Assembly: GCA_026705465.1 (NCBI GenBank)
Contig: JAPPAP010000017.1
Location: 6,100-70,099 of the forward strand
Direction of reading: 5' to 3'
Length of the DNA stretch: 64,000 bases
Source of the DNA: a bacterium
Lineage (GTDB): Bacteria; Actinomycetota; Acidimicrobiia; Acidimicrobiales; Bin134
The position numbers and the translations under genes were made by a program. The number at the start of each line of letters is the position of its first letter. The stretch's first letter is position 1. The notes under the pieces were generated by a model that was not told the DNA's origin, made no database searches, and saw only the letters and a program-made list of their open reading frames with translations. Positions 6,279 through 39,844 of the stretch are shown one piece after another.

Positions 6279-6359
6279 AAACTGTAGGCTGTCCACTCAA
6301 TAAGTTGTTGGCTATAATCTCGATAAATTGTAGGATGAATCGCTAGCAAACTGTAGGAT
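6279..6359 (+). promoter_or_regulatory. Three direct repeats AAA(C/T)TGTAGG(C/A)T around a TATAAT box, upstream of the AAA/DUF4143 ATPase gene
   Basis: Copies start at 6279, 6325 and 6348, so the spacings are 46 and 23 bp. TATAAT is at 6313-6318 and GAAGGAG is at 6378-6384, ahead of GTG 6391. Confidence 0.4.
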
Positions 6360-6390
6360 AGCAGGAATTGACCAGCTAGAAGGAGCGCCC

Positions 6391-10980: not shown

Positions 10981-11098
10981 GCAGGGTTGCGTCCCGTAGC
11001 AGTAGCCGTCGTGACAAGCAACTAGCTTATTCTCATCGATGCCTGCGTGACGCTCCTGACCACCCCTTGACCCATCGAGCCACCCGGAGAACACACCC

Positions 11099-12286: not shown

Positions 12287-12305
12287 GCGCAGTGGTTATC
12301 GGCCC

Positions 12306-13187: not shown

Positions 13188-13207
13188 GCACACGAAGGTA
13201 GCCAACC

Positions 13208-14089
13208 ATGTCCGTCCTGTCCCTGGGATACGTCCGGCTCGTTAGTCCACACCTGGACGAGTGGCGCAGGTTCGCTGCCGACGTGCTCGGCTTCATGCCC
13301 GCGCCCGGCCCCGACGCGGCCGCGGCCTATTTCCGATGGGACAACTACCCCTACCGCCTGGTCGTCGCCGCAGCTGACACCGCGGGAGTCGACGCCATCG
13401 GCTTCGAAGTCATCAACGACGCCGACCTGCACGCACAGGTCTCTCGCCTCGAACAGGCGGGTGTCGACGTGAGAGTGGGCTCCGACGAAGAGGCCGCCGC
13501 CCGTCTCGTGACCGGTTACGCCTCCTTCGAAGATCCCGCCGGCACCCCGCTGGAGCTCTACCACGGCCCCATTCGCAACGACATTCCGGTGGTGACACCC
13601 CTCGTTTCGAGCTTCGTGACCGGAGACATGGGCTTCGGACACGCCGTTTTGAAGGTCGATGAATTCGAGCCGGTCCTGAACTTCTACCGAGACGTGCTCG
13701 GCTTCCACCTGCGGAACACCTGGCACGCCGGGGCGATGTCGATGGCGTTTTTGGGCTGCAACCCGCGTCACCACACGATCGGAATCGGCGCCGGTCTGCC
13801 TCGGACCCATCCGCTGGGGCACATCATGGTGGAAGTGGCGACCATCGATGATGTCGGCATGGCCCAAGACCGCTGCCTCGACCAGGGAGTCCCTGTCCAC
13901 ATGTCCTTGGGACGCCACACCAACGACGAGATGATCTCTTTCTATTGCCAAGCTCCCGACCCGATGATGGTCGAGTTCGGATGGGGTGGGCTACGAGTCG
14001 AGGATCCCGACCTTGCCGGCACCTACCAGATCTCCCGCCCGAGCTTTTGGGGTCACCGGCCCTTCCCGGCTGGACCAGCACCCGGCTAG
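13208..14089 (+). CDS. hsaC: Extradiol (type I, two-domain VOC) ring-cleavage dioxygenase (HsaC/BphC-like)
   Basis: The sequences MSVLSLGYVRL...GCNPRHHTIGIG...HIMVEVATIDDVG...LGRHTNDEMISFY are typical of BphC/HsaC. Confidence 0.75.
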   Translation: MSVLSLGYVRLVSPHLDEWRRFAADVLGFMPAPGPDAAAAYFRWDNYPYRLVVAAADTAGVDAIGFEVINDADLHAQVSRLEQAGVDVRVGSDEEAAARLVTGYASFEDPAGTPLELYHGPIRNDIPVVTPLVSSFVTGDMGFGHAVLKVDEFEPVLNFYRDVLGFHLRNTWHAGAMSMAFLGCNPRHHTIGIGAGLPRTHPLGHIMVEVATIDDVGMAQDRCLDQGVPVHMSLGRHTNDEMISFYCQAPDPMMVEFGWGGLRVEDPDLAGTYQISRPSFWGHRPFPAGPAPG

Positions 14090-15405
14090 TAGCGGGAGCG
14101 GGGGGAGATGGCGAGGGAGAGGGCTACGGCGACGATGGCGGCGCCGGCGCCTAGAAGGTAGGAGCTGGCCAGGGAGTTGCCGGTGATGTCGGTGCCGATC
14201 ATGATGACCATGGTCTGCATGCCGGTGGTGACGCCGACTTGGGTGAGGGTGCCCCGCATGCCCGAGGCCACGCCGTAGTCCTCGGGCTCCACCGCGTCGG
14301 ATGCGGTGGTGGTGAGCGACGGGAGCTGGATGCCGTGGCCGATGGCCACCACGAACAGCCCCGCCACCGTCCAGCCCAGCGATGCCTGCCAGGCCGACAG
14401 GGCGAAGAACACCATACCCACCGCCAACAGCGACGATCCGACCACCGGGGTCATGCGGGCCCCCAAGCGGGGGTGGATGTAGCCGCCGGCAAAGGCACAC
14501 GAGCTGAACGTGATCGGCCGCACCGCCAACAGCAGCGTGGCCGCCCCCAGGCCCCAGCCCAGCCGCTCGGTGAACAAGAACGGGGTCACCACCAGCCCGC
14601 CCATGAACGAGAAGTTGGCCAGGGTGACCACCCAGATGGGAATGGAGAAGTTGCGCTTTCGCAGGTAGGCCATGCTGATGATCGGCTCGGGCACGCGCTG
14701 CTCAATGCGGGCGAACGCGGCTAGCAGCACAACCCCGCCGGCCATGAGGATGACGCTCACCGAGGTGCCCACGCCGTCGTTGCCCAACAGCGTCAGCCCC
14801 ACCAGCACCAGCGCCACCCCGGCAGTGAGGGTGAGGCCGCCCCAGTAGTCGACCGACACGTCGAGGCCGCCGCCCATCGGGCGGACCACCGTCGCGCTGG
14901 TCACCAGGCCGATCACCGCGATCACCCCGAAGAAGGCGAACACCCACCGCCAGCCGAACTGCTCCACGATCTGCCCGCCCACGATCAGCCCGATGGCGGG
15001 CGCCCCCGACAGCGCCGACTGATACCAGCCAATGGCCCGGGAGCGGGTGGAGATCGGAAACGCCAGCAGCACCATGGCGGTGCCTGCCGCGGTGGCCACC
15101 CCGTTGGCAACCCCGGCCGCCACCCGGAACCCGATCAGGCTCTCGATGCTCCAGGCCAGCCCGCTGAGAGGGGTGACCACCACCAGCATCACCGCCGAGG
15201 CCAAAAATGCCCGGCGGTGGCCGTAGATGTCGCCCAGCTTGCCGCCCAGCGACGTGGACACCGCGGAAGCCAAGATGGCCCCGGTCACCGTCCAGCTGGC
15301 GGCATCGGTTCCGGTGTCGAGGTCGCGGGCGATGTCGCCGACGGCCACCGCGATCACCGTCAGGCTCATGCTCACCCCGAACTGCACGGGGACGATGGCC
15401 GCCAT
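14086..15405 (-). CDS. MFS transporter (DHA-type drug/metabolite:H+ antiporter-like)
   Basis: 439 aa and multi-TM. The N-terminal ...VAVGDIARDL...W.V... and GGKLGDIYGHRR motifs are typical of MFS. Confidence 0.85.
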   Translation of the reverse strand: MAAIVPVQFGVSMSLTVIAVAVGDIARDLDTGTDAASWTVTGAILASAVSTSLGGKLGDIYGHRRAFLASAVMLVVVTPLSGLAWSIESLIGFRVAAGVANGVATAAGTAMVLLAFPISTRSRAIGWYQSALSGAPAIGLIVGGQIVEQFGWRWVFAFFGVIAVIGLVTSATVVRPMGGGLDVSVDYWGGLTLTAGVALVLVGLTLLGNDGVGTSVSVILMAGGVVLLAAFARIEQRVPEPIISMAYLRKRNFSIPIWVVTLANFSFMGGLVVTPFLFTERLGWGLGAATLLLAVRPITFSSCAFAGGYIHPRLGARMTPVVGSSLLAVGMVFFALSAWQASLGWTVAGLFVVAIGHGIQLPSLTTTASDAVEPEDYGVASGMRGTLTQVGVTTGMQTMVIMIGTDITGNSLASSYLLGAGAAIVAVALSLAISPRSRY

Positions 15406-15468
15406 CAGGCGGAACCGGTAGCGGTCGTCGTAGCCGACCGCGGCTGTGCTCAGCGCTTCATGTCGGGA

Positions 15469-16428
15469 TTACCCCGACAGGGCGGCTTGCACCGCGGCGG
15501 CTGCGGTCTCCTGGGCTTCGACGGCGCCGGGGATGGCCAGGGTCATGCCGAAGAAGCCGTGGAACATGCCGTCGTAGCGGTGGACCTCACAGGCCACCCC
15601 GGCCTCCTGGAGGGCGGCCCCGTAGGCCTCGCCCTCGTCGCGCAGCGGGTCGAACTCGGCGGTGATGACGCACGCCGGTGGCAGTCCGCTGAGGTCGGCT
15701 GCTTTGATCGGCGAGGCATAGGGGTTGTCGCGGTCGGCCACAGCGGCGTACTGGTCGTAGAACCAGTCCATCGACTCCTTGGTCAAGAAGTAGTCGAAGC
15801 CGTTCTCGGTCTGCGACGGCCAGGCGTTGGAGTCCATGTCGCAGCAGGGATAGATCAGCAGCTGGTGGGCGATGGCCGGACCGCCCCGGTCGCGGGCCAT
15901 CTGGGCCACTACCGCGGCCAGGTTGCCTCCGGCGCTGTCGCCAGCCACTCCCAGGCGCCCAGCATCGGCCCCGATGGAAGCGGCGTTGGCGGCCACCCAC
16001 TGGGTGGCGGCGTAGCAGTCTTCGGCAGCAGCCGGGAACTTGGCCTCCGGCGCCAGCCGGTAGTCCACCGACACGTACACCATGCCGGTGCGGTTCACCA
16101 TCTCTCGCACCTGGCCGTCGTGGCTGTCGATGCCGCCGATCACCCAGCCCCCGCCGTGGAAGAACACCACCACCGGACGGGGCTCATCGGTGACCTCGGC
16201 CCAGTAGATCCTGATGGGCAGGTCGTCGCCGTCGGCGCCGGCGATCACGCGGTCCTCGGTGCGGGCCACGTCCTCCACCGGCATGTCGCCCAGCTGCATG
16301 CGGTTGCGCAGGTCCTCGGCGGTCAGCGAGGCGATGCCCGCAAAGCTCACGCCGTTTTCTTCCATCATGTCCATAACGGCCTTGGCGGCCGGATCTAGTG
16401 CCATGGGCCGCACCCTAACCGAGCCCAA
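15469..16428 (-). CDS. Alpha/beta hydrolase, hormone-sensitive-lipase-type esterase
   Basis: The oxyanion motif FFHGGGW and the nucleophile motif GDSAGGN are both present. An alternative start is at 16404. Confidence 0.9.
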   Translation of the reverse strand: MGSVRVRPMALDPAAKAVMDMMEENGVSFAGIASLTAEDLRNRMQLGDMPVEDVARTEDRVIAGADGDDLPIRIYWAEVTDEPRPVVVFFHGGGWVIGGIDSHDGQVREMVNRTGMVYVSVDYRLAPEAKFPAAAEDCYAATQWVAANAASIGADAGRLGVAGDSAGGNLAAVVAQMARDRGGPAIAHQLLIYPCCDMDSNAWPSQTENGFDYFLTKESMDWFYDQYAAVADRDNPYASPIKAADLSGLPPACVITAEFDPLRDEGEAYGAALQEAGVACEVHRYDGMFHGFFGMTLAIPGAVEAQETAAAAVQAALSG

Positions 16429-16496
16429 TGCGCCTGCTGTGGGTCGCGGCGTTTACCATCTGCCCGGAGACAGCGCCGACACCCAAGGGGGATGGC

Positions 16497-17609
16497 ATGG
16501 AGTTCGCGATGTTCTACGAGATTCCGGTGGCCCGGCCCTGGACTCGTGAGAGCGAGTACAACGCCTACCAGAACACCATCGAGCAGGCCGTTCTGGGCGA
16601 CAAGATGGGCTTCCACTCGTTTTGGACGGTGGAGCACCACTTCTTGGAGGAATACTCGCACTGCTCCAACCCCGAGGTGCTGTATGGCCACATCGCCGCC
16701 CTCACCGAGAACATGCGGATCGGCTATGGCGTGCGCCTTCTGCCCAAGCCCTACAACCACCCGGTGCGCACCGCGGAGTCGGTGGCGGTGCTCGATCTGA
16801 TCAGCAACGGGCGGGTGGAGTTCGGCACCGGCCGCTCGTCCACCCGGGCCGAGCTGGAGGGATTCAACATCCACCCCAACGAGACCCGGGCCCAGTGGGA
16901 CGAGGCGCTGCGCCACATCGTGGGCTGCTGGACCAACGACGAGTACGAGTTCGAGGGCGAGTACTGGTCGATGCCCAAGCGCCGGGTGCTGCCCAAGCCC
17001 CGCCAGGATCCCCACCCGCCCATCTGGGGGGCCACCAGCTCGGTGCCCGGCCACTACGAGATCGGCAAGCGGGGCATCGGGCTGTGCTCGTTCACCGTGG
17101 GCCAGCCGCCCGAGGACTTGGCCGAGCGGCTCGAGGCCTTCCGCAAGGGCCACGCCGACTGCGACGAGCCGGTGGGGGCGTTCCGCAACGAGCGGGCCGC
17201 CACCTTCACCATGGTGCACTGCAATGAGACCAACGAGAAGGCCCGGGCCGCCGCCGAGGAGTCGTTCGTGTGGTATCCGGGCTACGGGGGCGGGCTCATC
17301 GCCTCGGTAGCCGACTACCTGGCCGACCTGGAGGTGGCCGAGCTGGGCACCTACGAGTACACCGGCGATGCGGCCAAGAGCCGCGACGAGGGGCTTTTGG
17401 GCCAGATCACCATGGACTACATCTGGGAGTCGGGCGCCGGGGTGATAGGCGACCCAGACCGCTGCGTGGAGATCGCCAAGCGCTACGAGGCGGTGGGCTG
17501 CGACCTGCTGTTCTGCCTGTTCAACCCGTACAAGATGGCCCACGAAGATGTGATGACCTCCATCGAGCTCATGGGCAAGTACGTGATCCCGGAGTTCAAG
17601 AAGGACTAG
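16497..17609 (+). CDS. LLM-class (luciferase-like) flavin-dependent monooxygenase
   Basis: The sequence MEFAMFYEIP...GFHSFWTVEHHF... is present. The start is taken at ATG 16497 inside ORF 16428-17609. Confidence 0.85.
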   Translation: MEFAMFYEIPVARPWTRESEYNAYQNTIEQAVLGDKMGFHSFWTVEHHFLEEYSHCSNPEVLYGHIAALTENMRIGYGVRLLPKPYNHPVRTAESVAVLDLISNGRVEFGTGRSSTRAELEGFNIHPNETRAQWDEALRHIVGCWTNDEYEFEGEYWSMPKRRVLPKPRQDPHPPIWGATSSVPGHYEIGKRGIGLCSFTVGQPPEDLAERLEAFRKGHADCDEPVGAFRNERAATFTMVHCNETNEKARAAAEESFVWYPGYGGGLIASVADYLADLEVAELGTYEYTGDAAKSRDEGLLGQITMDYIWESGAGVIGDPDRCVEIAKRYEAVGCDLLFCLFNPYKMAHEDVMTSIELMGKYVIPEFKKD

Positions 17610-17669
17610 GTGGCGCCTTGACCGCCAACTACCTGTACATGAAGAGCTAACCGCAGACTGGAGGCGGCC

Positions 17670-18644
17670 ATGGCCCTGCTCAACATCCGCTACGACTTCC
17701 GGTGCCCGGACATCTGCCCGGTGCCGGTGGAAGAGCTGTACCACGCCGCCATCGAGCAGGCGGTGTGGGCCGAGGACTTGGGCTTCGTGTCGGTGACGCT
17801 GTCGGAGCACCACGGCTCCGAAGACGGCTACCTGCCCTCGTTGGTAGCGCTGGCGTCGGCCATCGCCGCTCGCACCGAGAACATCCACATCATGCTGGCG
17901 GCGTTGATCGCCCCCATGCACGACCCGCTGCGGATCGCCGAGGATCTGGCCGTGCTCGACCGGATCAGCAGGGGCCGCATCAGCGTGACGGTGGCCGGGG
18001 GCTACGTGCCCTCGGAGTTCGAGATGTTCGGGTATACGACGGGCGACCGGGTGCGCCTCACTGTGGAGATGGTGGAGACCCTCAAGGCGGCCTGGACCGG
18101 CGAGCCGTTCGAGTTCCGGGGCCGCACCGTGCGGGTCACCCCCACCCCGTACCAGAATCCTCGGCCGGCCATCTGGCTGGGCGGCAGCGGCGAGCAGGCG
18201 GCCCGCCGAGCCGCCCGGATCGCGGATGGGTTCCTGCCCACCATGCCCGAGTTCTGGGACTTCTACCGCGACGAGGTCATCCAGTTGGGGCGGGATGATC
18301 CCGGCCCGGCCACCTCCGGCGGCGTCGGCTACCTGCACATCACCCACGACCCCGACGCCACTTGGGCCAAGGTCGCCCCCCACGCCCTCCATGAGATGAA
18401 CGCCTACGGCCAGTGGGCGGCCGAGTCGGGCGCCGCCACCGGCTACGAGCCGGTGAACGATGCCGACGCGCTGCGGGCCATGGGCATGCACCACCTGATC
18501 TCCCCGGCCGAGGCCATCGACATGATCAAGGCCATGGGCGACTTCGACGCCCTCATGTTCCACCCCCTCATGGGCGGCCTCGACCCCGCCGTTTCCTGGG
18601 AAAACCTCCGCCTCTTCGAGACCGAGGTCCTACCGCACCTCTAG
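17670..18644 (+). CDS. LLM-class flavin/F420-dependent oxidoreductase
   Basis: The sequences ...LGFVSVTLSEHHGSEDGY...LAVLDRISRGRISVTVAGGY... show a luciferase-like pattern. Confidence 0.85.
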   Translation: MALLNIRYDFRCPDICPVPVEELYHAAIEQAVWAEDLGFVSVTLSEHHGSEDGYLPSLVALASAIAARTENIHIMLAALIAPMHDPLRIAEDLAVLDRISRGRISVTVAGGYVPSEFEMFGYTTGDRVRLTVEMVETLKAAWTGEPFEFRGRTVRVTPTPYQNPRPAIWLGGSGEQAARRAARIADGFLPTMPEFWDFYRDEVIQLGRDDPGPATSGGVGYLHITHDPDATWAKVAPHALHEMNAYGQWAAESGAATGYEPVNDADALRAMGMHHLISPAEAIDMIKAMGDFDALMFHPLMGGLDPAVSWENLRLFETEVLPHL

Positions 18645-19906
18645 CCCTCTGAAGGGACCTGGTAGCGGTCTACATAGGGGGCGAATTGGTCGCACACTTC
18701 GTCGGCTGAGAGGCCGAATTGGTCAAGGGTGTAGCGGTGTCGTCCGAAGCGGTCTTGGGGGTTTTCGTCCATCCAGGCGGCCATCCGGCGGCGGCCTAGG
18801 TCGTCCAGCTCCATGTTGAAGTGGCGGTAGATGCGCTCCACTGAGCCCACCGGGTCGTCCATCAACTCGGCGTATTGGAGGTCGAACACGGTGTCGTCGG
18901 CCCCCTGGCGGTCCCGGAACTCGGTGCCCGCCTTGATGCCGTGGAGGCACTTGTCCCGCCAGGTTCGGCCCACCCGGGCGAAGTCCACCTGGTCGGTGTT
19001 GGTGGCGTGGAGGGTGCTGTTGAGGCTGGCCACCGACCCCACCACTTTGAGCGGGTCGCGGTGGGTCCACACCACCCGGGCATCGGGATACACCGCGTAC
19101 ACCGCGTCCATGTGCCACATGTGCCCCGGCGTCTTCAGCGCCCACCTCTGGGTCGGGATGGCAGATTGCAGCACCTGCAAGCACAGGCGGTGGAACTCAT
19201 AGGCCGGCACCATGTCGCAGGTCTCGAACCATGAGCCGTAGGAGTCGAACGTGCCCTGGGTCTCAAAGTGGATCGACTTGAACTCCCCGCCCAGCAGGGT
19301 CACGCACTCGGTGGGCAGCGTGGCCGCCATCGGGTGCATGGCCTGCACGCTGGGGGCCAGCTTGGACAACTGGCCCGAGCCCTTCACCGATTCGGCAATC
19401 CGGGGATCCTCTTTGTGGCTCGACAGGGTGGGCGGCGGGGCCACCGCGGCGGCCTCCCATGCCAGCAGCGACCGGTTCTGGGGATCGAGATCCAGCAAGT
19501 TGCTGAGCAGGGTGGTGCCGGTGCGGGGCAAACCGCTCACCACGATCGGCCCGGCAACCCGCTCCCGGGCCACCTCAGGATGCTGATTGGCCCAGTCCAC
19601 CACCCGCAGCCGCAACTGGAGCGTGGTATCGAGCAGGCCCCCCATAATCATCCGCCCAAGCTGGCTCAGGTTTCCCTCGTCGTTGACCGAGTCCACCAGG
19701 ATCTCGAACCCCTCCCGCCAACCGTCGGGCCCGAAGTCGTCGAGCTTGGCCGACTCCTGGGCCTTGCTCACCAATGCGTCGGCGTTCAACCGTCCATGTC
19801 CAGGTCGGATGCGGCGGACAGTGCGGCCATAGCCGTTCAGCGCCCGCACCACCAGGGGAAGCGACCGCTTGTCGGTGGCCCTCACGTCTCGCTTGGCTTC
19901 GCTCAT
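18641..19906 (-). CDS. Sulfotransferase family protein (Sulfotransfer_3-like)
   Basis: The PAPS-binding loop-like motif is in GLPRTGTTLLSNLL. The size is 421 aa. Confidence 0.8.
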   Translation of the reverse strand: MSEAKRDVRATDKRSLPLVVRALNGYGRTVRRIRPGHGRLNADALVSKAQESAKLDDFGPDGWREGFEILVDSVNDEGNLSQLGRMIMGGLLDTTLQLRLRVVDWANQHPEVARERVAGPIVVSGLPRTGTTLLSNLLDLDPQNRSLLAWEAAAVAPPPTLSSHKEDPRIAESVKGSGQLSKLAPSVQAMHPMAATLPTECVTLLGGEFKSIHFETQGTFDSYGSWFETCDMVPAYEFHRLCLQVLQSAIPTQRWALKTPGHMWHMDAVYAVYPDARVVWTHRDPLKVVGSVASLNSTLHATNTDQVDFARVGRTWRDKCLHGIKAGTEFRDRQGADDTVFDLQYAELMDDPVGSVERIYRHFNMELDDLGRRRMAAWMDENPQDRFGRHRYTLDQFGLSADEVCDQFAPYVDRYQVPSEG

Positions 19907-19928
19907 AGTGGCGTAGGGTAACCCCCCA

Positions 19929-20792
19929 ATGCCGGAAACCCCCCCGCCTTCGGGCGACTATCCCCCTGAGCACCACATTCTGCGCGACCTCAAGCTGGAG
20001 AGCGAGAGGCCCGAGCGAGGCCGGGCTCTCAGCTATGCCCCACTCGGCCCGGCCCTGCTGACCTCATCGGGCAATGCCCGACTCGGAGTTATCGGCGTCA
20101 CGGTCGACGCAGCAGGAGCGCTGACGGCTCTGATTGAGGCACTACCCGATCGAATCGCCACCCAGGACTTGTCGTACACCGCATCGGGCTTTGCCCGCCA
20201 GGGTCCGCTGATCGCCTCGTGTCGACTGCTACGGGCCGGCCAGCGCCTGATCACCGTGGCCGCCACCCTTGCCGATGGCTGTGGCAGCGACGATCCCAAT
20301 CAGGCTCAGCCCATCGGCGAAGCGATTCTCTCCTTCTCGTTGATCCCCAACCGGCCGGGGAACGACGACCTGTCTCACTTGCAAGAACCGGTCATTGAGC
20401 GGCGCACGATGGGTCTGGCCACCTCGGGATTCGGGAACACGGCGCTGTGGGGTGCCATCGGGCTCGACGTGGTGGACGCCGCCGCCGGCGTGGTGCAGGT
20501 GCTCATGACCGACTACGTGCGCAACAGCTTCGGCACCATCAACGGCGGGGTGATGATCATGGCGGCTGAAGCCGCTGGTGAGCTGGCCGTCCAGGAGGCA
20601 CTGGGGACACCGGTGGCCGCCATGAGCCTCAACTACCGCTTCTTGGACCAAACCCGCATCGGCCCGGCTCAAACGCAGACCACGGTGTTGCGCAACAACG
20701 ACCAAAGCGCAGTGGCCATCGTGAGGCTGATCGACAGCCAGCGCCCTCGCCTTTTGGCCGGCTACGCGGTCATCCAGTTCGCAGCGCAGTAG
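19929..20792 (+). CDS. Tandem hotdog-fold (PaaI-type) thioesterase-like protein
   Basis: The second half has ...FGTINGGVMIMAAEAAGE..., typical of PaaI/4HBT. The first half is a weaker copy. Confidence 0.6.
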   Translation: MPETPPPSGDYPPEHHILRDLKLESERPERGRALSYAPLGPALLTSSGNARLGVIGVTVDAAGALTALIEALPDRIATQDLSYTASGFARQGPLIASCRLLRAGQRLITVAATLADGCGSDDPNQAQPIGEAILSFSLIPNRPGNDDLSHLQEPVIERRTMGLATSGFGNTALWGAIGLDVVDAAAGVVQVLMTDYVRNSFGTINGGVMIMAAEAAGELAVQEALGTPVAAMSLNYRFLDQTRIGPAQTQTTVLRNNDQSAVAIVRLIDSQRPRLLAGYAVIQFAAQ

Positions 20793-28941: not shown

Positions 28942-29817
28942 CTAGATCCGGGCCTCGCGCACGTCGAGGCGCCTGAGGAGCTCATCGCCCACAAAGTTCA
29001 AAGCCATGAGCGTGACGAACATCACCCCGCCGGTAATCAACGCGATGTGAGGGGCATCCTCCAGTCTTCCCTTTCCGGCAGCCAGGATGTTGCCCCAGGT
29101 GATGCTGGGCGAGCCCACGCTCACCCCGATGAACGACAGGCTCCCCTCGGCGATGATCACAATTCCCATGGCCAAAAAGGCGATGGATGCCAGAGCCGGC
29201 ACCACATTGGGCATCACTTCCCGGAACAGCAATCGGGGCCATTTGGCCCCCATCATGTGGGCCACGGTCACAAACTCCCGAGCCGCGAACCGCAGCGCTT
29301 GGGCCCGGGCGATGCGGGCGATGGCCGGGATCGTCAAAACGGTCACTGCGATGGTGACGTTCAAGTAGCTCTCTCCCAGCATGGTCACGATGAACAGGGC
29401 GAATACCAGCGCGGGCAGGGCCAGCGCCACATTGACCACGCTGCTCACTCCGAGATCGATCCACTTGCCGAAGTAACCGGCCAACACGCCCAGAACACCG
29501 CCCACCACGATCCCGATGCCCACCGCTGGTCCGGCGATGGACAGCGACAGCCGGCCACCCCACACTGAGCGGGCGAACATGTCCCGACCGAGCTGGTCGG
29601 TGCCGAACCAATGCGACCAACCTGGCCCCTCTTCGGGCTGTCCGGCCAGGGGCTTTTGAGGGTCGTCGAGAAATCCCAGCCAAGGCGCCAGCACGGCGCT
29701 GGCTATCACCAAGGTCAGCCACCCCACCGATAGCCACAGGGCAACATTGTGCCGTTGCCGGCGAGGGGCGACTTCGGGTTGGGAGCCCGTGATGGCGGTG
29801 GTGTGGGCGTCGGTCAT
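28942..29817 (-). CDS. ABC transporter permease (Dpp/Opp C-type)
   Basis: Multi-TM protein with the binding-protein-dependent transport signature region ...AQALRFAAREFVTVAHMMGA.... Confidence 0.9.
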   Translation of the reverse strand: MTDAHTTAITGSQPEVAPRRQRHNVALWLSVGWLTLVIASAVLAPWLGFLDDPQKPLAGQPEEGPGWSHWFGTDQLGRDMFARSVWGGRLSLSIAGPAVGIGIVVGGVLGVLAGYFGKWIDLGVSSVVNVALALPALVFALFIVTMLGESYLNVTIAVTVLTIPAIARIARAQALRFAAREFVTVAHMMGAKWPRLLFREVMPNVVPALASIAFLAMGIVIIAEGSLSFIGVSVGSPSITWGNILAAGKGRLEDAPHIALITGGVMFVTLMALNFVGDELLRRLDVREARI

Positions 29818-30758
29818 TTTCGCCGTATCCGGGGGTCGAGCACGGAGTAGAGCAGATCAACCAGCGTGGTCACGGTGACGAACACCGCGGCGATCAACGC
29901 CACCAGGGTCTGAACCAACAGGAACTCCCGGGCCGCCACCCAACTCACCAGCAGCGATCCGACGCCGTCAAGATCGAATAGGAACTCCACCACGATGGCG
30001 CCGTTCACCGCTTGGGCGGCCTGGATGCCGAAGATGGTGAGCAGGGTGAAGCTGGACGGGCGCAGCACATGGCGGAACAGCACATGGCGCACCGGTAAGC
30101 CCTTGGCCCGGGCTGTGCCCACAAAGTCCTCCTGGAGCGTGCCGATCACGTCGGTACGGAGCAGTCTCAGATAGACGGGAAACAGCCCGGCCGCCAGCGT
30201 CGCCGCGGGAAGGAACATCACCTTGAAATGGGCCACCAGCCCCTCTGAAATCGGCTGATAGCCACTCAAATCGAACCAGTCCAGCCTCACGGCAAACACC
30301 AGGATCAGCAACAGCCCGAGCACGAACACCGGGGTAGACAGCAGCGCGAATGCTCCACCGCTGGCGACCTTGTCGCCCACGCTGTTCTGCCTGTATCCCG
30401 TCCACAGCCCGAGGGGAATGGCCGCACCCAGAGCCAGGATCTGGGAATAGGCCAACAGCAACAGAGTGCGGGGCAATGCGTGGTTGATGGCCTCGCCGAA
30501 CGAACGCCCGGTGAGGTACGACTTCCCGAAGTCTCCGGTGAGCACGTCGCCGCCCCACTTGGCCCACTGCACGATGACCGGCTCGTCCAGATTGCGATCC
30601 CGCTCGCATTCAGCAATCTGCTCTTGGGTGGCGGCCCCGCCGAACGCGGCCACGCACGGGTTGCCGGGCAGCAGGTTCAGCATCCAATAGAACAGCAGGG
30701 TGACCGCCAGCACGACCACCGCAAGCTGGGCCAAGCGCATTCCGATGAACCGGAGCAT
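29814..30758 (-). CDS. ABC transporter permease (Dpp/Opp B-type)
   Basis: It begins MLRFIGMRLAQLAVVVLAVTLLFY..., and ...DFVGTARAKGLPVRHVLFRHVLR... is the EAA-loop region. It has a 4-nt overlap with the downstream permease gene. Confidence 0.9.
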   Translation of the reverse strand: MLRFIGMRLAQLAVVVLAVTLLFYWMLNLLPGNPCVAAFGGAATQEQIAECERDRNLDEPVIVQWAKWGGDVLTGDFGKSYLTGRSFGEAINHALPRTLLLLAYSQILALGAAIPLGLWTGYRQNSVGDKVASGGAFALLSTPVFVLGLLLILVFAVRLDWFDLSGYQPISEGLVAHFKVMFLPAATLAAGLFPVYLRLLRTDVIGTLQEDFVGTARAKGLPVRHVLFRHVLRPSSFTLLTIFGIQAAQAVNGAIVVEFLFDLDGVGSLLVSWVAAREFLLVQTLVALIAAVFVTVTTLVDLLYSVLDPRIRRK

Positions 30759-30811: not shown

Positions 30812-32611
30812 TTACTGCTCGATCCAAGCCTCAGTCAAGAAGACTCGCCCGCCGAATACCCTCACGTGCTCAACCCCGCCGGGAAGGGTGAGGTTGTCGA
30901 CGCCATGCACATGGTCGTGGGCGGCGAATAACCAGTTCGAATGGTAGAACCAGATGTAGTGGACGGCCTCGGCAAACGCCCTGTTGATCTCTTCGGCTAG
31001 TTCCCTTCGACGGTCGAGGTCTTTGGTGGTCAAGGCCTCGTCCAACGCGCCATCGATTGCCGGGTTGTTGACCCGGCCGAAGTTCAGCGCGATCCCCTGA
31101 CCGAACTTGCTGTGCCACCAGGTCCGCTCCGCAGCCACGTCGTAGCTTTCGTGCTGGCGCCACAAGAAGGCGGTGAAATTGCCGATCACCGCCTGGGTGA
31201 TGAAGTCGGCCTGGTCCACCTGCGTGATGTCCACATCCAAACCGCAATCGCGCCACATGGAGGCGAGCAGCTCGGTATTGAGGAGGTTGGCCGGGTCATT
31301 GGTAGTACCGATCTGCGCGCTGGAAATACCCAAGCGAGCAATGGTGGCGCTCCCCGCATCGGGATCATGGGCCGGGAATCCCGAGTCCTCCAGATAGCCG
31401 GGAGTTCCCGGTGAGAACGGACCGGAGGCGGGCACTTGCCCGTCCCAGCGGATGGTGTTGAACGTCTGACGGTCGGTGCATTGGGCCAGTGCTCGCCGGA
31501 ACTCTGGGTTGTCGTACGGGGGCCTCGAGTTGTTCAACAAGAGGTAGGTGGTCTCGTTGTACCTCTCCTCCTGCCAGTATGTCTTGAACTGCTCGTTGTA
31601 TTCGTCGATTCGAAGGCCGGTGTTCACGCTGCTGGCATCGAGGTCTCCCGACCTGAGGGCTGCGAACCGGCCATCGGTATCGGGGATGGGGCGGAACTCA
31701 AGTCCATCCAGATAGGGAAGCTGGCGGCCCTCAGCATCGGTGCGCCAGTAGTTCGGATTGCGGACCATCCGGGTGATGTCGTTGGGAATCCACTCGTCCA
31801 GCATGAACGGGCCGGTGCCGATGGGGTTGCGGGCCGCTCCCTCCTGGCCAAGATCGTGCATCGACGGTGCCCCGAAATAGCCGAGATGGCTGGTCAGGAA
31901 GTTGGGAAGGGCGGCATATGACTTGCCCAACACCATCTTGATGGACACATCGTCCACGACCTCGATGGTTTGAATCTCCCAGTCGCTGACGATGATGCCG
32001 GTCAGGGTGCCCTTTTGCTGTTCCTCGAAGTGGCGCTTGAGCGCGGCCCCATCCGCCGGTGTCCCATCGTGGAAGGTGATCCCCGGGCGCAAGGTGAGGG
32101 TCCACTCACTGAAGTCGTCGTTGGAGGTGATGCTCTCCAGCAGATTGGGCACGGCCTCGCCATCGGGACCTTCAATGGTCAAGGTGTCGTAGAGGGCCCG
32201 GAACAGGATGTGACCCGACACCGCGGCCTGGGCATTCACCGGGTTCAGCCCATTGGTGGTCTCCGCCTCCAAGCCCACCACCAGCGTGCCTCCGTACTGA
32301 GGCTCCATCGCTGCTGCGGGGGCTTCATCCTCCGAGCTTGAGGTGTCATCGGGCGCCGCTGCGTCTTGCTCCCCGCTGTCGTCGGTGCTGGGTTGGGCCT
32401 GTTCATCACCATCACCGCTGGGAGCGGGGGCTTCGTCGCCGTCGTCCCCCGAGGGCGCCTCAGGGGCCGCAGTGGCCTCAGCGGCCACTCCGCTGCCGGT
32501 GTCATCGTCGTCGTTCCCGCCGCCGCAGGCCGTGGCCACCAGTGCCACCGCGCAGAGCAGGGCCAGCCACCGCCACAACGCCATTTTTGGGATCCGCCTG
32601 AAACCGAACAT
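30812..32611 (-). CDS. ABC transporter substrate-binding lipoprotein, family 5 (peptide/nickel/opine type)
   Basis: The lipobox is LVATAC, followed by an acidic D/E/G/S linker and then an SBP_bac_5-like body (...YGGTLVVGLEAE...). Confidence 0.9.
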   Translation of the reverse strand: MFGFRRIPKMALWRWLALLCAVALVATACGGGNDDDDTGSGVAAEATAAPEAPSGDDGDEAPAPSGDGDEQAQPSTDDSGEQDAAAPDDTSSSEDEAPAAAMEPQYGGTLVVGLEAETTNGLNPVNAQAAVSGHILFRALYDTLTIEGPDGEAVPNLLESITSNDDFSEWTLTLRPGITFHDGTPADGAALKRHFEEQQKGTLTGIIVSDWEIQTIEVVDDVSIKMVLGKSYAALPNFLTSHLGYFGAPSMHDLGQEGAARNPIGTGPFMLDEWIPNDITRMVRNPNYWRTDAEGRQLPYLDGLEFRPIPDTDGRFAALRSGDLDASSVNTGLRIDEYNEQFKTYWQEERYNETTYLLLNNSRPPYDNPEFRRALAQCTDRQTFNTIRWDGQVPASGPFSPGTPGYLEDSGFPAHDPDAGSATIARLGISSAQIGTTNDPANLLNTELLASMWRDCGLDVDITQVDQADFITQAVIGNFTAFLWRQHESYDVAAERTWWHSKFGQGIALNFGRVNNPAIDGALDEALTTKDLDRRRELAEEINRAFAEAVHYIWFYHSNWLFAAHDHVHGVDNLTLPGGVEHVRVFGGRVFLTEAWIEQ

Positions 32612-32673: not shown

Positions 32674-34494
32674 CTAGCGATTGTCCAGCCAAGTCTCGGC
32701 CAAGAACACCCGGCCCAGGAACACCTTGGGATGCTCCCCTCCCTCGGGGAGCGTGAGGTTGTCAATCCCATTCACATAGTCCTGAGTGGCCACTAGCCAC
32801 CGCGAGTAGTAGAGCCAAATGTTGTAGACACCCTCGGCGAACGCCCGGCTGACCTCCTCGGCCAGTTCCTGCTGCCGCTCGTCGTCATCGGTGGTGATCA
32901 CCTCATCCAGCGCCGCGTCGATTCGCGAGTCGTTGACTCGCCCGAAGTTGATGGCCGGAATAGGGAGGGGCGGGCCATAGGCGCTGTGCCACCAGAACCG
33001 CTCCATGGCCAGGCTGTACCCGCTGTGGTTGACCGCAATGAATGTGGAGAAGCTCCCGAAGACGGCTTGGGTCACCGCCTCGGTCTGGCCTAGCTGAACG
33101 ATGTCTACGTCCAGCCCGCAGTCGCCCCACATGCTCACCAAGAGCTCGGCTTGGAGGAGGTCCAGGGTGGTGGTTGTGGTGGTTATATCGAAGCGGGGGG
33201 CACCCAGACGCTCAAAGGTCGCCCGACCGGCATCGGGATCGTAAGCCGGAAAACCGGAGTCCTCCAGATAGCCGGGAGTTCCCGGAGAGAACGGCCCGGT
33301 GGCCGGCGGCTGGCCGTCCCAGATCACGGCATTGAGAGTTTGCCGGTCGGTGCACTGGGCCAGCGCCCGGCGAAACTCCAGGTTGTCGAACGGGGGTTTC
33401 GCGGTGTTCATCTGAACATACGTGGTGGCCGAGTACCGGTCGTCCTGCCAGTGGGTCTTGAAGCCCTCGCGGTATTGCTCAACCCTCCTCCCGCTGTTGT
33501 CGACGCTGGCATCCACCTCGCCGGCCCGCAGTGTGTTGAACCGGGTCTCATCGTCTTCAATGGGGCGGAACTCGATGGCGTCAAGGTAGGGAAGCTGTCG
33601 GCCCTGGGCGTCGGTGCGCCAATAGTTCGGGTTGCGCACCACCCGGGTCACATCGTGCTCAGCCCAGTCTTCCAGCATGAATGGGCCGGTTCCGATCGGG
33701 TTGCGGGCACTGTCGGTGCCTAGGTCGTACATGGTCGGGGAAGGCAGAAAGCCGCCCGCGCTGGTGAAGCCCAGGGGGAAATCGGCGAACGATCTTCCCA
33801 AGGTGACCTTCACGCTCAAGTCGTCGATTGCCTCAGCGCTCTGCATCGCAGCATCGTTAATGGCCAGCCGCGACAGGGAGCCCCGCCCCATCTCGTCCAT
33901 ATGTCGGACAAGGGCAGCCGAGTTCACCGGCGAGCCGTCATGGAACGTGATCCCCGGTCGCAGTGTGAACGTCCACTCGGTGTAGTCCTCGTTGGGCGAG
34001 AAGCTCTCCAGCAAGAACGGAATCGGCTCGCCATCGACCCCCTCGATGATCAGCGGGTCATAGATCTGCCGCAACACGATATGTCCCGACGTCGCGGCGG
34101 TGGTCGTAATCGGATTCCATCCCCCCGTGGTCTCCGCGTCCAGCCCGAACACCAGCGTGCCGCCGTAGACAGGTTCGGGTCCGACAGGCGGTTCCTCCTC
34201 GTCGGGCACAGATGGCGCTCCGGTCGACTCCGGCTGGCCTTCGTCATCAGTGCCGCTCTGTTGGCCATCAGGCTGCTCGTCTTCGGCGCTGTCGCCGCCA
34301 TCGTCGCCGCTGTCTTCGCCATCGCCGCTATCGTCGCCGCCCGTCGCGGTCGGTACCGAGGTCTGTTCGACCGCCGCACCGCTGTTATCGCCGTCGCCTC
34401 CCCCACCACAAGCTGAAGCCAGCAGTGCGACCACGCAAAGGGCGACCAACCACTGCCAATGCGTGTTTCTCAAGGATCGAGAACTCTTGAACAC
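32674..34494 (-). CDS. ABC transporter substrate-binding lipoprotein, family 5 (tandem paralogue)
   Basis: The lipobox is LLASAC, followed by an acidic linker. The protein is colinear and clearly similar to the 30812-32611 product along its whole length. Confidence 0.9.
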   Translation of the reverse strand: MFKSSRSLRNTHWQWLVALCVVALLASACGGGGDGDNSGAAVEQTSVPTATGGDDSGDGEDSGDDGGDSAEDEQPDGQQSGTDDEGQPESTGAPSVPDEEEPPVGPEPVYGGTLVFGLDAETTGGWNPITTTAATSGHIVLRQIYDPLIIEGVDGEPIPFLLESFSPNEDYTEWTFTLRPGITFHDGSPVNSAALVRHMDEMGRGSLSRLAINDAAMQSAEAIDDLSVKVTLGRSFADFPLGFTSAGGFLPSPTMYDLGTDSARNPIGTGPFMLEDWAEHDVTRVVRNPNYWRTDAQGRQLPYLDAIEFRPIEDDETRFNTLRAGEVDASVDNSGRRVEQYREGFKTHWQDDRYSATTYVQMNTAKPPFDNLEFRRALAQCTDRQTLNAVIWDGQPPATGPFSPGTPGYLEDSGFPAYDPDAGRATFERLGAPRFDITTTTTTLDLLQAELLVSMWGDCGLDVDIVQLGQTEAVTQAVFGSFSTFIAVNHSGYSLAMERFWWHSAYGPPLPIPAINFGRVNDSRIDAALDEVITTDDDERQQELAEEVSRAFAEGVYNIWLYYSRWLVATQDYVNGIDNLTLPEGGEHPKVFLGRVFLAETWLDNR

Positions 34495-34518: not shown

Positions 34519-35514
34519 TCAGAAGCGTAGTTCAGGTGACAAGTATGTGTTCCTTATCTGCTCTCCGAATTCAGAATAAGACAACGCATCAGGCCCGTCA
34601 GGGACAATCACGCCCCGACGGGCGCAATCCTCGGCCATCGTGGCGATCAACGTCGCCTCATCCAGGTCGTCGAGATGCTGGTCGTACACCTCGGCCTCAT
34701 AATCGTCGTCGAATACGAAGGCTTTCCACGACAGCGACACTCGCACCTCGTCGAATGCATGCCGTACCGGCTCATGGCCGGGCTCTTCGATCACCCACTG
34801 CCGATCGGGGGTCAGTGTGATGGTGGCGTCGAAGCCGTACTTGGCGTAGTCGGCCTCTACGCCGATGGACTCCACCCGATGGGGCATGTAGTCGTTGTCG
34901 CCCATCACGCCGTAGTTGTAGGGGGGCTTTACCGACACCAACTCGCCGTCCCAGCCCTCGGGCCAATAGGTGAACTCCCCTCCCGGACCGTCGTAGTACC
35001 AGCACACCGCAGTGGCGATTCGCACCCGCCAGCGATCGAAGCACCCCGAGTGCATCATGCAGTTGAGCAGCCAGGTGGGATAGTCGTCTCGGCCCACTCC
35101 CCGAAAGGAGGGAATATCGGTGTGGCGGGCGTACTGGCCGCTGGGAGCGTTGATGTTCACATAGGTGAAGTAGGGACGCACCACCTCGGCGCCGTAGAGC
35201 TGGCGGGCGGATTCGATGAACCGGGGGTTGTTGACGATGGTGTCTGCTCCCTCCACGGCCTGTTCCTCGGCTCCCCAGGTGGTGCGGAACACAGGTGGCA
35301 CCCGGGGCTCGCCGTCCACCACATCGACGAACGGCGGCACATCGCCGGTCTTGGCCCCGGCCCGAAGGGCAGCCCGGCTCTCCACAAACTCAGCGCCGGC
35401 CAGCGTCAGCGGATGGGGCGACTGGCGCTGCAAGATGCCCAGCAGCACATCGGGGCTCTCCAGGGCCTGTTCCATGATGACCGGAGGTCGGGGCAGGGTG
35501 GTCGTGCGCATCAC
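34519..35514 (-). CDS. Hypothetical protein, first gene of the ABC-importer operon; possible non-heme-iron (HxD...H) oxygenase-like protein
   Basis: Coherent 331-aa ORF with non-antisense composition. It contains ...YARHTDIPSF... and a later ...DYMPHRVES.... I do not recognise a family. An alternative start is at 35475. Confidence 0.55.
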   Translation of the reverse strand: MMRTTTLPRPPVIMEQALESPDVLLGILQRQSPHPLTLAGAEFVESRAALRAGAKTGDVPPFVDVVDGEPRVPPVFRTTWGAEEQAVEGADTIVNNPRFIESARQLYGAEVVRPYFTYVNINAPSGQYARHTDIPSFRGVGRDDYPTWLLNCMMHSGCFDRWRVRIATAVCWYYDGPGGEFTYWPEGWDGELVSVKPPYNYGVMGDNDYMPHRVESIGVEADYAKYGFDATITLTPDRQWVIEEPGHEPVRHAFDEVRVSLSWKAFVFDDDYEAEVYDQHLDDLDEATLIATMAEDCARRGVIVPDGPDALSYSEFGEQIRNTYLSPELRF

Positions 35515-35590
35515 GACACATTACGACACGGGGTAGGGTGGATCAGAAGGGCTCGCCCGAGTCGTCCGGAGTTTTCCGCAAGGAGCTTCT

Positions 35591-36130
35591 ATGGAAACCA
35601 CCACCATCCTGCTGCCCACTGGCGAGGTAAACGAGCCGGCTCAGCCGCTGGCCATTCGCAAAGACTCTCTGGCCGGCGCGGTGGTGGGCATCATCGACAA
35701 CGACATGTGGCGGTCGATGGCCATCATGGCCGACGAGCTGTCCCGCCAACTCGTGGACCGGGCCGGGGCGGCCGGGGTAGTCGTGAGGGCCAGTGGCCCC
35801 ATGCACGGCGCCGACCCGGAGCAGTATCAGCAGGAGATGGAGGCGTTCCACGCCGAAGTCGATGCGGTGATCAGCGGATTGGGCAATTGAGGATCATGCA
35901 CGGCGTGGTGTATCCACGCCAGCAGCACGCTGGAAGCAATGGGAACCCCGGCAGTGGGCCTGGTGACCGAGCAATTCCGGGGCCTGGCCGAGGCCACGGC
36001 CCGGGGGCTGCGGGTGGACAACCAGCCCATCATCGTTCTGCCGTCGGGCTACGACGAGTGGTCGGAGGATGACATCAGGGCCGACATCGCATCCCGCCTC
36101 GACGACATCGTGGACGCCCTAGTGGCATGA
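35591..36130 (+). CDS. UGSC-motif (seleno)protein: 179 codons with in-frame TGA (35888-35890) read as selenocysteine
   Basis: AAGGAG lies 7 nt upstream of ATG 35591. ORFs 35591-35890 and 35939-36130 are in the same frame. Read-through gives ...ISGLGN-U-GSCTAWCIHASSTLEAMGTP.... A hairpin follows immediately downstream. Confidence 0.7.
35897..35924 (+). other. Candidate bacterial SECIS hairpin for the UGSC gene
   Basis: The upper stem GGCGTGG (35902-35908) pairs with CCACGCC (35914-35920), with loop TGTAT. The lower stem TGC (35897-35899) pairs with GCA (35922-35924) across a small internal loop. The apical loop lies about 20 nt after the TGA. Confidence 0.55.
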
Positions 36131-37182
36131 CCCAACGGGTCACAGTTGAAGGCGGCACCGACGAGGTAGAGGCCTATCTGCGAGAGCGGGGAATGACCGA
36201 TGGACTTCCCATCGTTCCCCCCACCCCCGGGCGGGTTGCGGCCGCAGTCGCCGCTTCTGGACTGCCCGCCGACCATGTGGTGAGCGACATCGCCCCGCTG
36301 AACGCGCCGGCCACCGTAGAGAAGATTGCAGTCAACGCGGTGATGGCCGGATGCTCTCCGGAGGTGATGCCGGTGCTCGTCGCCGCCATCGACGCCTTCT
36401 GCGACCCCCAGATGAACGCCCATGGCGTGCAGACCACCACCAACCCGGTGGGGCCGATGCTGGTGGTGAACGGCCCGATTCGCAATCGGCTGGGCTTCAA
36501 CTACGGCGCCGGGTGCTTCGGGCCGGGGTCGCACACCAACGCCACCGTGGGCCGGGCCCTTCGGCTGGCCCTGGTGAATATCGGCGGGGCTATTCCTGGT
36601 GACGTGGACAAGGCGCCGCTGGGCTGGCCCGGCAAGGCCACCTCGCTGTGCGTGGCCGAGAATGAGGAGGCCTCCCCGTACTCGCCGTATCACACCGAAG
36701 CTGGGTTCGATGCCGACGACGACGTGGTAACGGTGCTGGCCGTCAACGGAATGTGGCCCATCACCGACATGCACCACGAACCCGACCAGGTGCTGCACCA
36801 CGTGACCCGCGGGCTGGCCACCAGCGGGCCGTGCGGCGGCCACGACGCCCCCAATCCCTTCCCAACGGTGCTGGTGATGAGCCCGGTCATCGCCGAGATG
36901 GTGGCCAGCGTGCTGCCCACCAAACAGGAGCTGCGAGAGCACCTGTTCGCCGAGGCCCGGGTGCCGCTGGACTTCTACCCCCCGTACCGGCACCAGCCCA
37001 CCCGAGATGTGCTCGAGAATCTCGGGGTGGCCATTGAGAACGACCGGGTGCCCATCGTGCTCTCTCCCGATCACTTCGTGATCCTGGTGGCCGGTGGTGC
37101 GGGCGGGCTTCAGTCAGCGGGGCTGTCGTGCATGCTGGGCATGCCTACCAGCCGGGCGGTCGCAACCGGCTCGGCGGCTTAG
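36127..37182 (+). CDS. Conserved hypothetical protein, translationally coupled to the UGSC gene
   Basis: The ATG overlaps the UGSC gene stop (ATGA at 36127-36130). The 351-aa ORF has normal composition and contains ...MTDGLPIVPPTPGRV... and ...AVMAGCSPEVMP.... I do not recognise a family. Confidence 0.65.
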   Translation: MTQRVTVEGGTDEVEAYLRERGMTDGLPIVPPTPGRVAAAVAASGLPADHVVSDIAPLNAPATVEKIAVNAVMAGCSPEVMPVLVAAIDAFCDPQMNAHGVQTTTNPVGPMLVVNGPIRNRLGFNYGAGCFGPGSHTNATVGRALRLALVNIGGAIPGDVDKAPLGWPGKATSLCVAENEEASPYSPYHTEAGFDADDDVVTVLAVNGMWPITDMHHEPDQVLHHVTRGLATSGPCGGHDAPNPFPTVLVMSPVIAEMVASVLPTKQELREHLFAEARVPLDFYPPYRHQPTRDVLENLGVAIENDRVPIVLSPDHFVILVAGGAGGLQSAGLSCMLGMPTSRAVATGSAA

Positions 37183-39208: not shown

Positions 39209-39284
39209 GCCCCGTTCGTCTAGAGGCCTAGGACGCCAGATTCTCAATCTGGTAACACGGGTTCGAATCCCGTACGGGGTGCCA
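39209..39284 (+). tRNA. tRNA-Glu (anticodon CTC), CCA encoded
   Basis: The acceptor stem is GCCCCGT/ACGGGGT, the anticodon stem-loop is CCAGA-TTCTCAA-TCTGG and the T-arm is ACGGG-TTCGAAT-CCCGT. The 3-prime end is GCCA. Confidence 0.9.
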
Positions 39285-39321
39285 CTACTGCGGACGAGCT
39301 TGCACGGGTATACTTCACAGT

Positions 39322-39543
39322 ATGCCTGATTCGACTACCATTAAGGTCTCCTTGCGGACTCGGGATGCTTTGCGTCAGCTCGCCGATCGAGAAGGGCTCA
39401 CATTCGACGCCCAGCTCGAGAAGATGATCCGACGGGAGCGCCGTCGCATCATCGGGGCTCAGCTAGCGGGTGCCCCACTCGATGCTGATGACGAGGCAGT
39501 GCTCGATGCGTCGGCAAGCGACGTTGCTGATGCAAGCGGGTGA
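39322..39543 (+). CDS. mazE: Type II antitoxin (ribbon-helix-helix, MazE-like)
   Basis: 73 aa, with TTIKVSLRTRDALRQLADREG (RHH-like). It overlaps the downstream MazF-like gene. Confidence 0.7.
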   Translation: MPDSTTIKVSLRTRDALRQLADREGLTFDAQLEKMIRRERRRIIGAQLAGAPLDADDEAVLDASASDVADASG

Positions 39544-39844
39544 CATCGTTCGCTGCGACTTCGGGACACCGGCGAGGGGTGAGCCGGGGTTTATCCGCCC
39601 GGCGATCATTATCACCTCCGATGATGTGCTGGAGTTCCGGCAACACGCGATCGTGGTCGTACCCTGCACGACAACGAAGCGGGGATGGTTGAGCGAGGTG
39701 GCCATAGAGGGATTCGGCGTCGCCCAGGCCCACCTGCCGATGACCATTAGTGTCGACCGCGTCGTCGAGACGACAGGAACGAACGTCGGCTTCGTCGCGC
39801 TTCAACAGATCCGAGAACTCATCGCCGATCTTCTCGGCCTTTGA
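39530..39844 (+). CDS. mazF: Type II toxin, MazF/PemK endoribonuclease family
   Basis: The sequence MQAGDIVRCDFGTPARGEPGFIRPAIIITSD...VVPCTTT...GVAQAHLPMTISVDRVV... is the MazF pattern. The start at 39530 lies inside ORF 39470-39844. Confidence 0.8.
   Translation: MQAGDIVRCDFGTPARGEPGFIRPAIIITSDDVLEFRQHAIVVVPCTTTKRGWLSEVAIEGFGVAQAHLPMTISVDRVVETTGTNVGFVALQQIRELIADLLGL

Follow-up and report, generated by a model that had tools for sequence, protein, structure and literature searches.

In the 64-kb window, that is, the whole stretch of bacterial DNA that was analysed, an in-frame UGA codon at 35888-35890 is very probably decoded as selenocysteine (Sec), within a gene that belongs to the UGSC family of selenoproteins. 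The gene adds a new member to a known family and does not stand for an element of a new type; its current annotation is wrong, as gene callers cut it into two ORFs of 99 and 63 aa. Its value lies chiefly in the partner family encoded next to it, and in the unusually clear evidence for a SECIS hairpin, the RNA element expected downstream of a Sec codon. The elements of the gene model are the following:

35580-35585, forward strand: Shine-Dalgarno sequence AAGGAG, with a 5-nt spacer to the ATG at 35591 (sequence reading)
35591-36130, forward strand: predicted selenoprotein gene of the UGSC family, complete, with 179 codons and the stop TGA at 36128-36130 (translation, PF24696)
35888-35890, forward strand: in-frame TGA, predicted Sec codon (U100), first residue of U-G-S-C (TGA/Cys alignment)

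Translation places the ORFs 35591-35890 and 35939-36130 in one frame, with the TGA at 35888-35890 as the sole break: the ATG at 35939 lies 348 nt, or 116 codons, past the ATG at 35591, and the ORF that starts there runs to the TGA at 36128-36130. Reading through generates a product of 179 residues (...AVISGLGN-U-GSCTAWCIHASSTLEAMGTPAVGLVTEQF...), in which the peptide across the predicted Sec junction is ...EVDAVISGLGN-U-GSCTAWCIHASSTLEAMGTPAVGLVTEQFR. The motif is found in the context N-U-G-S-C-T, and the frame continues downstream as N-[TGA]-G-S-C-T-A-W. Upstream of the ATG at 35939, the sequence features no ribosome binding site. An earlier note on this DNA, made from the letters alone, had described two ORFs in one frame, interrupted only by the TGA and adding up to 179 codons, with a strong AAGGAG ahead of the first ATG and none ahead of the second; translation and sequence agree with it on each of these points. 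Its further claim, that the ORF track splits a single selenoprotein gene, is matched by the public gene calls of an orthologue, which are split likewise.

Among ordinary stops in the window, TGA is used most often (26 out of 55 genes), and it also terminates the UGSC gene itself, which indicates that no general reassignment of TGA is at work. When the window was screened for other ORFs split by a TGA, no second credible selenoprotein gene was found; the remaining candidates resembled antisense-frame artefacts of high GC content.

Family membership was evaluated on the read-through product, with the TGA taken as Cys. The match to the Pfam family PF24696 (UGSC) scores 115.9 bits (E 2.9e-33, cut-off 25) and covers practically the full profile, window residues 6-178 being aligned to profile positions 2-171 of 172. 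NCBIfam NF041046, the equivalog model named "UGSC family (seleno)protein", is matched across profile positions 2-146 of 147, with 84.1 bits (E 9.5e-24); this score does not reach the curated naming cut-off of 125 bits, and the Cys homologue P0013, with 66.9 bits, is likewise under it. On the sequence evidence homology is clear, but the branch of the window protein lies outside the trusted range of the equivalog. The family name given in the earlier note is the right one (PF24696, NF041046; PMC2398784).

The 12 closest protein clusters, in a database of 5.8 billion proteins, are about 99-145 residues long and every one of them ends in ...AVISGLGN: they are the same gene, cut by gene callers at the same TGA. 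In the precomputed annotations of an orthologue, both fragments match PF24696 separately. Full-length relatives carry a Cys at the position of the TGA: P0013 and P0014 read GLGN-C-GSCTAW, while P0015, a Rhodococcus protein already named UGSC family (seleno)protein, reads GLGN-C-GSCTA. The motif C-G-S/A-C is found in the Cys forms P0013-P0016, P0160 and others, and the TGA column aligns with Cys throughout these, including the full-length fusion proteins described below.

Homologues were also collected as genomic loci, with one genome per species, for a total of 53 loci: 33 come from sponge-associated Acidimicrobiia, Ca. Poriferisocius among them, and are close orthologues (81-99%), 3 are from Dehalococcoidia/Chloroflexota at about 50%, and 17 from other Acidimicrobiia/Actinomycetota at about 30-40%. 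Orthologues of 97-99% identity are present on the complete chromosomes NZ_OZ244791.1, NZ_OZ241977.1 and OZ242341.1. The first codon of the motif is TGA in 52 of these species-level loci and TGC in one (L038). All 54 sequences keep an open frame after this codon, for 79-106 codons or, in a fusion, for 474. Among 34 close sequences, variable sites are distributed over the three codon positions as 25/9/58 in the 69 codons past the hairpin, and as 37/30/77 in the 95 codons before the TGA; judged by this pattern, the segment downstream of the TGA is evolving as coding sequence, in the same way as the upstream one. The ATG at 35939 is not conserved: its place is taken by Leu in L030, L033 and L034, and by Arg or other residues in L035 and L040-54. 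The earlier note had proposed to align the read-through product to the family HMM and to look, in homologues, for a Cys opposite the TGA, for termination at this position, and for conservation of the downstream segment as part of one protein. The alignment, as seen above, spans the whole profile; Cys is present in one of the 53 genomes and in many database proteins; homologues do not end at the TGA; and the downstream segment belongs to the same protein by profile coverage, by the distribution of variable sites and by the lack of a conserved internal start.

A hairpin is predicted immediately 3' of the TGA, with the following parts:

35897-35924, forward strand: putative SECIS element, with the lower stem UGC 35897-35899 / GCA 35922-35924 (MFE fold and comparison)
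35902-35908 and 35914-35920, forward strand: upper stem GGCGUGG / CCACGCC, 7 bp (MFE fold)
35909-35913, forward strand: apical loop UGUAU, 5 nt (MFE fold)

The upper stem starts 11 nt past the TGA and, together with the loop, encodes the peptide T-A-W-C-I-H-A. Its folding energy is unexceptional when compared to shuffled sequences (z = -0.68; 51 out of 200 shuffles of this 65% GC sequence fold as well), and no SECIS family was reported by Rfam, either at gathering thresholds on the whole window or in a permissive scan of 35400-36300. The case for a SECIS must therefore rest on comparative data. The consensus model of bacterial SECIS elements (bSECIS) allows 3-9 nt in the loop, 4-16 bp in the stem and 16-37 nt between UGA and loop, sets an MFE of -7.5 kcal/mol or lower, and places a G at loop position 1 or 2, usually with G or U after it (PMC13188914). 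The window hairpin falls within every one of these limits: the loop is 5 nt long and starts with U-G, the stem has 7 bp, the distance from UGA to loop is 18 nt (35891-35908), and the 48 nt from the UGA onward fold with an MFE of -17.7 kcal/mol.

The synonymous sites of the hairpin are nearly frozen. Over 51 distinct sequences, third-position entropy is 0-0.24 bits in codons +4 to +10 (ACG GCG TGG TGT ATC CAC GCC), while flanking codons for equally invariant amino acids score much higher (Gly+1 1.11, Ser+2 1.44, Cys+3 0.94, Gly-4 1.77, Gly+18 1.56); the 21 nt of codons +4 to +10 are identical between proteins of only about 30% identity. In the alignment, 99.2% of the hairpin cells are paired, and none of 500 shuffles reaches either this pairing value or the covariation score. 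Pair 18-30 changes three times from G:C to G:U (CAC to CAU), and pair 16-32 changes from G:C to U:A in L057, L058 and L060, which are from Amycolatopsis, a deltaproteobacterial MAG and a betaproteobacterial MAG, respectively. The change in pair 16-32 leaves a trace in the protein, where an Ala-to-Ser and an Ala-to-Asp change are coupled: they occur together because their codons base-pair.

A fusion subfamily (L039, L063-65) encodes another peptide in this region, T-P-A-V-L-R-A, yet its hairpin starts at the same nucleotide: it is made of GCCCGC / CGUGYU / GCGGGC, with the loop C-G-U-G-Y-U, and one of its pairs has turned from G:C into A:U in L063. In the Cys-form fusions L062 and L066, this peptide is specified by other synonymous codons, and no such hairpin is present. 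For L038, the sole TGC locus of the 53, which is unfused, a stable hairpin is found past the Cys codon (10220-10270 of that locus) in another register, with an 8-nt loop lacking the leading G; this could be a chance product of GC-rich sequence or a decayed SECIS. As this Cys form also folds stably, stability alone discriminates poorly. Across the loci compared, the TGA, the downstream frame and the SECIS-type hairpin are conserved jointly, the Cys form of L038 keeping a stable hairpin that is differently placed, and the SECIS-type element is under selection and tied to the TGA. The earlier note had pointed to a perfect 7-bp stem 11 nt past the TGA, closed by UGUAU and extended by a TGC/GCA lower stem, and had considered it to have the position and shape of a bacterial SECIS. 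The stem is confirmed by the sequence and its MFE fold, and the interpretation holds as well, in view of its agreement with the bSECIS model, the frozen synonymous sites and the compensatory changes.

The machinery for Sec insertion was searched for by tblastn, with SelA, SelB and SelD from E. coli and Amycolatopsis as queries against the window and 1.1 Mb of related loci, by ARAGORN for tRNA-Sec on the window and 54 loci, and by Pfam across essentially all ORFs of the window. The E. coli and Amycolatopsis queries and ARAGORN detected no selA, selB, selD or tRNA-Sec, either in the 64-kb window or across the 1.1 Mb of the 54 related loci, and Pfam found no sel genes in the window. The Amycolatopsis acidicola locus (L057, VMNW02000008.1, 791-8518) features, in order, trxB, trx, tRNA-Sec, selB, an MFS transporter, UGSC with its TGA, the partner gene, selA and selD. 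The placement of this module inside a sel gene cluster is strong, if indirect, support for Sec decoding. Amycolatopsis acidicola also offers a cultivable organism for studying the family.

Other accounts of the TGA have to be weighed against Sec decoding. A nonsense mutation, or a sequencing or assembly artefact, would leave a dead gene, as might be suspected from the split gene calls in every public record seen and from the lack of Sec machinery in the window and the 1.1 Mb of related loci. The same TGA, however, recurs in 52 independent species-level assemblies from two phyla, in front of an intact frame that varies mainly at third positions and of a hairpin with frozen synonymous sites: conservation effectively refutes this account, to which next to no probability can be given. 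It is also very improbable that two real products are made, a 99-aa protein ending at the TGA and a 63-aa one translated separately from 35939. An ATG is indeed available there, and the separate matches of the two fragments to PF24696 in precomputed annotations would fit; but GSCTAW, the family's most conserved motif, is encoded by the 48 nt between the ORFs, the ATG has no ribosome binding site ahead of it and gives way to codons for Leu, Arg or other residues in many orthologues, and the Cys homologues are single chains.

Read-through might also take place without selenium, by a near-cognate Trp or Cys tRNA or by a Cys-charged tRNA(Sec), the hairpin being a generic stimulator or a pause site. 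The missing sel genes, over the same window and 1.1 Mb, are compatible with this, and the existence of Cys forms indicates that Cys is functional at the site. Yet the placement of the hairpin and its G-containing loop are those of a bSECIS, the Amycolatopsis module is embedded among selC, selB, selA and selD, and TGA forms far outnumber Cys forms: in the Global Ocean Sampling (GOS) selenoproteome, where UGSC is the fifth most abundant selenoprotein family, 255 Sec sequences are counted versus 21 with Cys (PMC2398784). Selenium-free read-through is thus left with a small probability. The preferred reading is SelB-dependent insertion of Sec, by which a 179-residue protein with a U100-x-x-C103 redox pair would be made; the comparative evidence allows high confidence in it.

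The fold of the UGSC protein was predicted from an AF2 model of the Cys homologue P0015 (31% identical to the window protein), built on a 22-row alignment (pLDDT 83.9, pTM 0.79). The model is built of five beta-alpha units and has C-G-S-C where strand 3 leads into helix 3; its best PDB fold matches, at TM of about 0.5, include flavodoxins, MdaB, WrbA and the flavodoxin domains of flavodiiron proteins. Its top 50 PDB fold matches contain no thioredoxin-fold protein and neither GrdB nor PrdB, and a search of PDB with the UGSC profile returned insignificant matches only. With moderate confidence, the predicted fold is flavodoxin-like and not thioredoxin-like; the matches are generic, and the model is that of the homologue P0015. 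A likely Trx-like fold had been suggested for UGSC in the GOS paper (PMC2398784), from which the present prediction differs: the P0015 model does not support a thioredoxin fold.

Immediately downstream, the start of a second gene overlaps the end of the UGSC one:

36127-37182, forward strand: partner gene, 351 aa, its start ATG overlapping the UGSC stop (ATGA), of an unannotated family

The partner family is characterized by the invariant motifs and residues DGLPxxPPT, E65, NAVMAGC (Cys76), QTTTNP, NGP, NATIGRAxRL, D161, K170, E178 and H189. In almost every one of the 53 loci, including those where UGSC identity is as low as about 30%, UGSC is followed directly by a partner homologue; the exceptions are L039, with a separate partner copy elsewhere on the contig, and L037, where none was found. 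The pair is also adjacent in deltaproteobacterial and betaproteobacterial MAGs, and in some cases the partner occurs alone. Over 4,200 database clusters belong to the family, and no Pfam domain is found in any of them. The partner itself has no Pfam, NCBIfam or PDB sequence match and no match in a profile search of PDB, and no consistent result came from scanning all 32 partner homologues with Pfam. Its AF2 model scores well (pLDDT 87.9, pTM 0.88). Class I fumarate hydratase (TM 0.24) and the Toblerone-fold cyclic amide hydrolases (about 0.2) were considered as relatives, and homology was rejected, as Foldseek TM values were 0.17-0.28.

In L039, UGSC and the partner form one 576-residue frame with a single TGA. 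Over 6,500 relatives came up when this fusion was used as a query: the majority of the best matches have 466-469 residues, and are Sec forms cut just past the TGA, while a minority of 578-607 residues is full length with Cys; some are already named "UGSC family (seleno)protein" by NCBI. P0194 is an example of a natural fusion in the Cys form. In its treatment of UGSC, the GOS study reports a fusion to a second conserved domain, "Unknown_1" (PMC2398784), which very probably is the partner family. Conserved adjacency, translational coupling as read from the overlapping ATGA, and frequent fusion show, at the level of gene organization, that the UGSC and 351-aa families are functionally linked.

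Of the two Cys-form fusion loci examined, both have a TrxR-like Pyr_redox_2 gene (about 305-319 aa) directly adjoining the fusion (L062, 7800-8717; L066, 4991-5950). In L057, trxB-trx is located just upstream of the Sec cluster. An association with TrxR-like genes is seen in only 2-3 loci overall; no TrxR-like gene was found in the 64-kb window by Pfam over essentially all ORFs. Other neighbours of the module are transporters and catabolic oxidoreductases, among them MFS, TctC, SBP_bac_5, Mo-hydroxylase and Rieske oxygenase contexts. In the deltaproteobacterial MAG (L058/L059, 1-6068), UGSC with its TGA and the partner follow an operon for a molybdenum hydroxylase of the xanthine dehydrogenase type (Fer2, FAD_binding_5, MoCoBD).

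On the other side of the UGSC gene, and divergent from it, a gene on the reverse strand (34519-35514) encodes a protein of 331 aa with no Pfam or NCBIfam match, 76-92% conserved within Poriferisocius-type loci. It was considered as a part of the module and rejected, being conserved only in loci of that type.

A mechanism may be proposed for the module. During translation the UGA at 35888-35890 would be decoded as Sec, the hairpin acting as a bacterial SECIS that recruits SelB-GTP-Sec-tRNA(Sec) while the UGA is in the ribosomal A site. The product would be a flavodoxin-like alpha/beta domain, where U100-G-S-C103 is predicted to lie where strand 3 leads into the N-terminus of helix 3: this is the usual location of redox-active UxxC/CxxC sites, and the pair may cycle through a selenenylsulfide. 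The UGSC protein would work with the product of the translationally coupled gene at 36127-37182. Tentatively, and with a probability set somewhat below even, the two may constitute a small-molecule reductase or another redox enzyme, in which the partner domain, with its invariant Cys76 and invariant polar residues, would bind the substrate, the U/C pair would supply nucleophile and electrons, and a system of the thioredoxin reductase type would recharge the pair.

In a wider perspective, there is nearly an even chance that UGSC and the "DGLPxxPPT / NAVMAGC" 351-aa protein represent a widespread selenium-dependent redox enzyme, either two-component or fused, spanning thousands of sequence clusters in Actinomycetota, Chloroflexota, Proteobacteria, Nitrospinota and others, with a catalytic partner without a close solved fold and with recharging by a TrxR-like flavoprotein. 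As the module is located inside the sel gene cluster, it may be the reason why some actinomycetes keep the Sec machinery. Leads to the function of UGSC are offered by the linkage to the partner, by the TrxR-like neighbours at both Cys-form fusion loci and by the placement in the Amycolatopsis sel cluster.

The splitting of the gene in every public record seen implies that too few selenium users are counted among sponge-symbiont Acidimicrobiia and Dehalococcoidia; a single corrected model of the gene transfers to dozens of genomes. The locus also provides a clean example of an RNA element dictating a protein sequence, T-A-W-C-I-H-A being fixed by the SECIS hairpin.

A few further features of the window were observed. 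Two tandem SBP_bac_5 solute-binding genes (30812-32611 and 32674-34494, reverse strand) have two ABC permease genes (28942-30758) downstream of them; only one SBP_bac_5 copy is present in at least one close relative (L001), suggesting a recent tandem duplication or loss. The region 1-6400 has a GC content of 0.59, versus 0.62-0.70 elsewhere in the window, and contains short ORFs, a Hypoth_Ymh protein, a GIY-YIG (LEM-3-like) nuclease and a DUF4143 AAA ATPase; it has the look of a mobile island or of one that was acquired. Next to a tRNA-Glu(CTC) (39209-39284) there is a gene for a MazF/PemK-like toxin (39470-39844); the distance and orientation of the tRNA vary in related genomes, which marks 39209-39844 as a rearrangement-prone spot. 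Finally, the region 7716-20000 contains a sulfatase, a TauD-like dioxygenase, a sulfotransferase, two luciferase-like monooxygenases, esterases and an MFS transporter, a cluster consistent with the use of sulfated or organosulfur compounds.

UGSC has been present in selenoproteome surveys since at least 2008 (PMC2398784) and is found in recent reviews (PMC9312934, PMC13188914), always as a family of unknown function. The window protein is like the other members (PF24696; NF041046) in its full-length HMM match, in featuring U/C-G-S-C at the same column, and in a length within the range of about 150-180 residues. It differs in that it stays below the NF041046 cut-off and so belongs to a divergent branch; it comes from a sponge-symbiont lineage of Acidimicrobiia, Ca. 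Poriferisocius, and is split in public MAG records.

When compared to the E. coli fdhF-type SECIS, the window hairpin shares its position in the coding sequence, immediately 3' of the UGA, and a small loop with an early G-U. The minimal fdhF SECIS requires an 11-nt gap between the UGA and the upper stem, and the gap in the window is equal. The two differ in that the window element has no sequence similarity to the E. coli one, no Rfam model and no bulged U evident in the upper stem.

At the level of the whole system, UGSC recalls GrdB and PrdB, the UxxC selenoproteins of substrate-specific reductases, and the thioredoxin-recharged selenoprotein systems, which similarly combine a UxxC motif and a small selenoprotein or domain with a larger, substrate-handling partner. 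Neither PDB profile nor fold searches detected sequence or fold similarity to GrdB or PrdB, and no pyruvoyl-proenzyme signature was recognized in the partner; the likeness is one of analogy only. The analogy would extend to the thioredoxin-recharged systems in one further respect, a TrxR-like gene being adjacent to the module in some UGSC loci.
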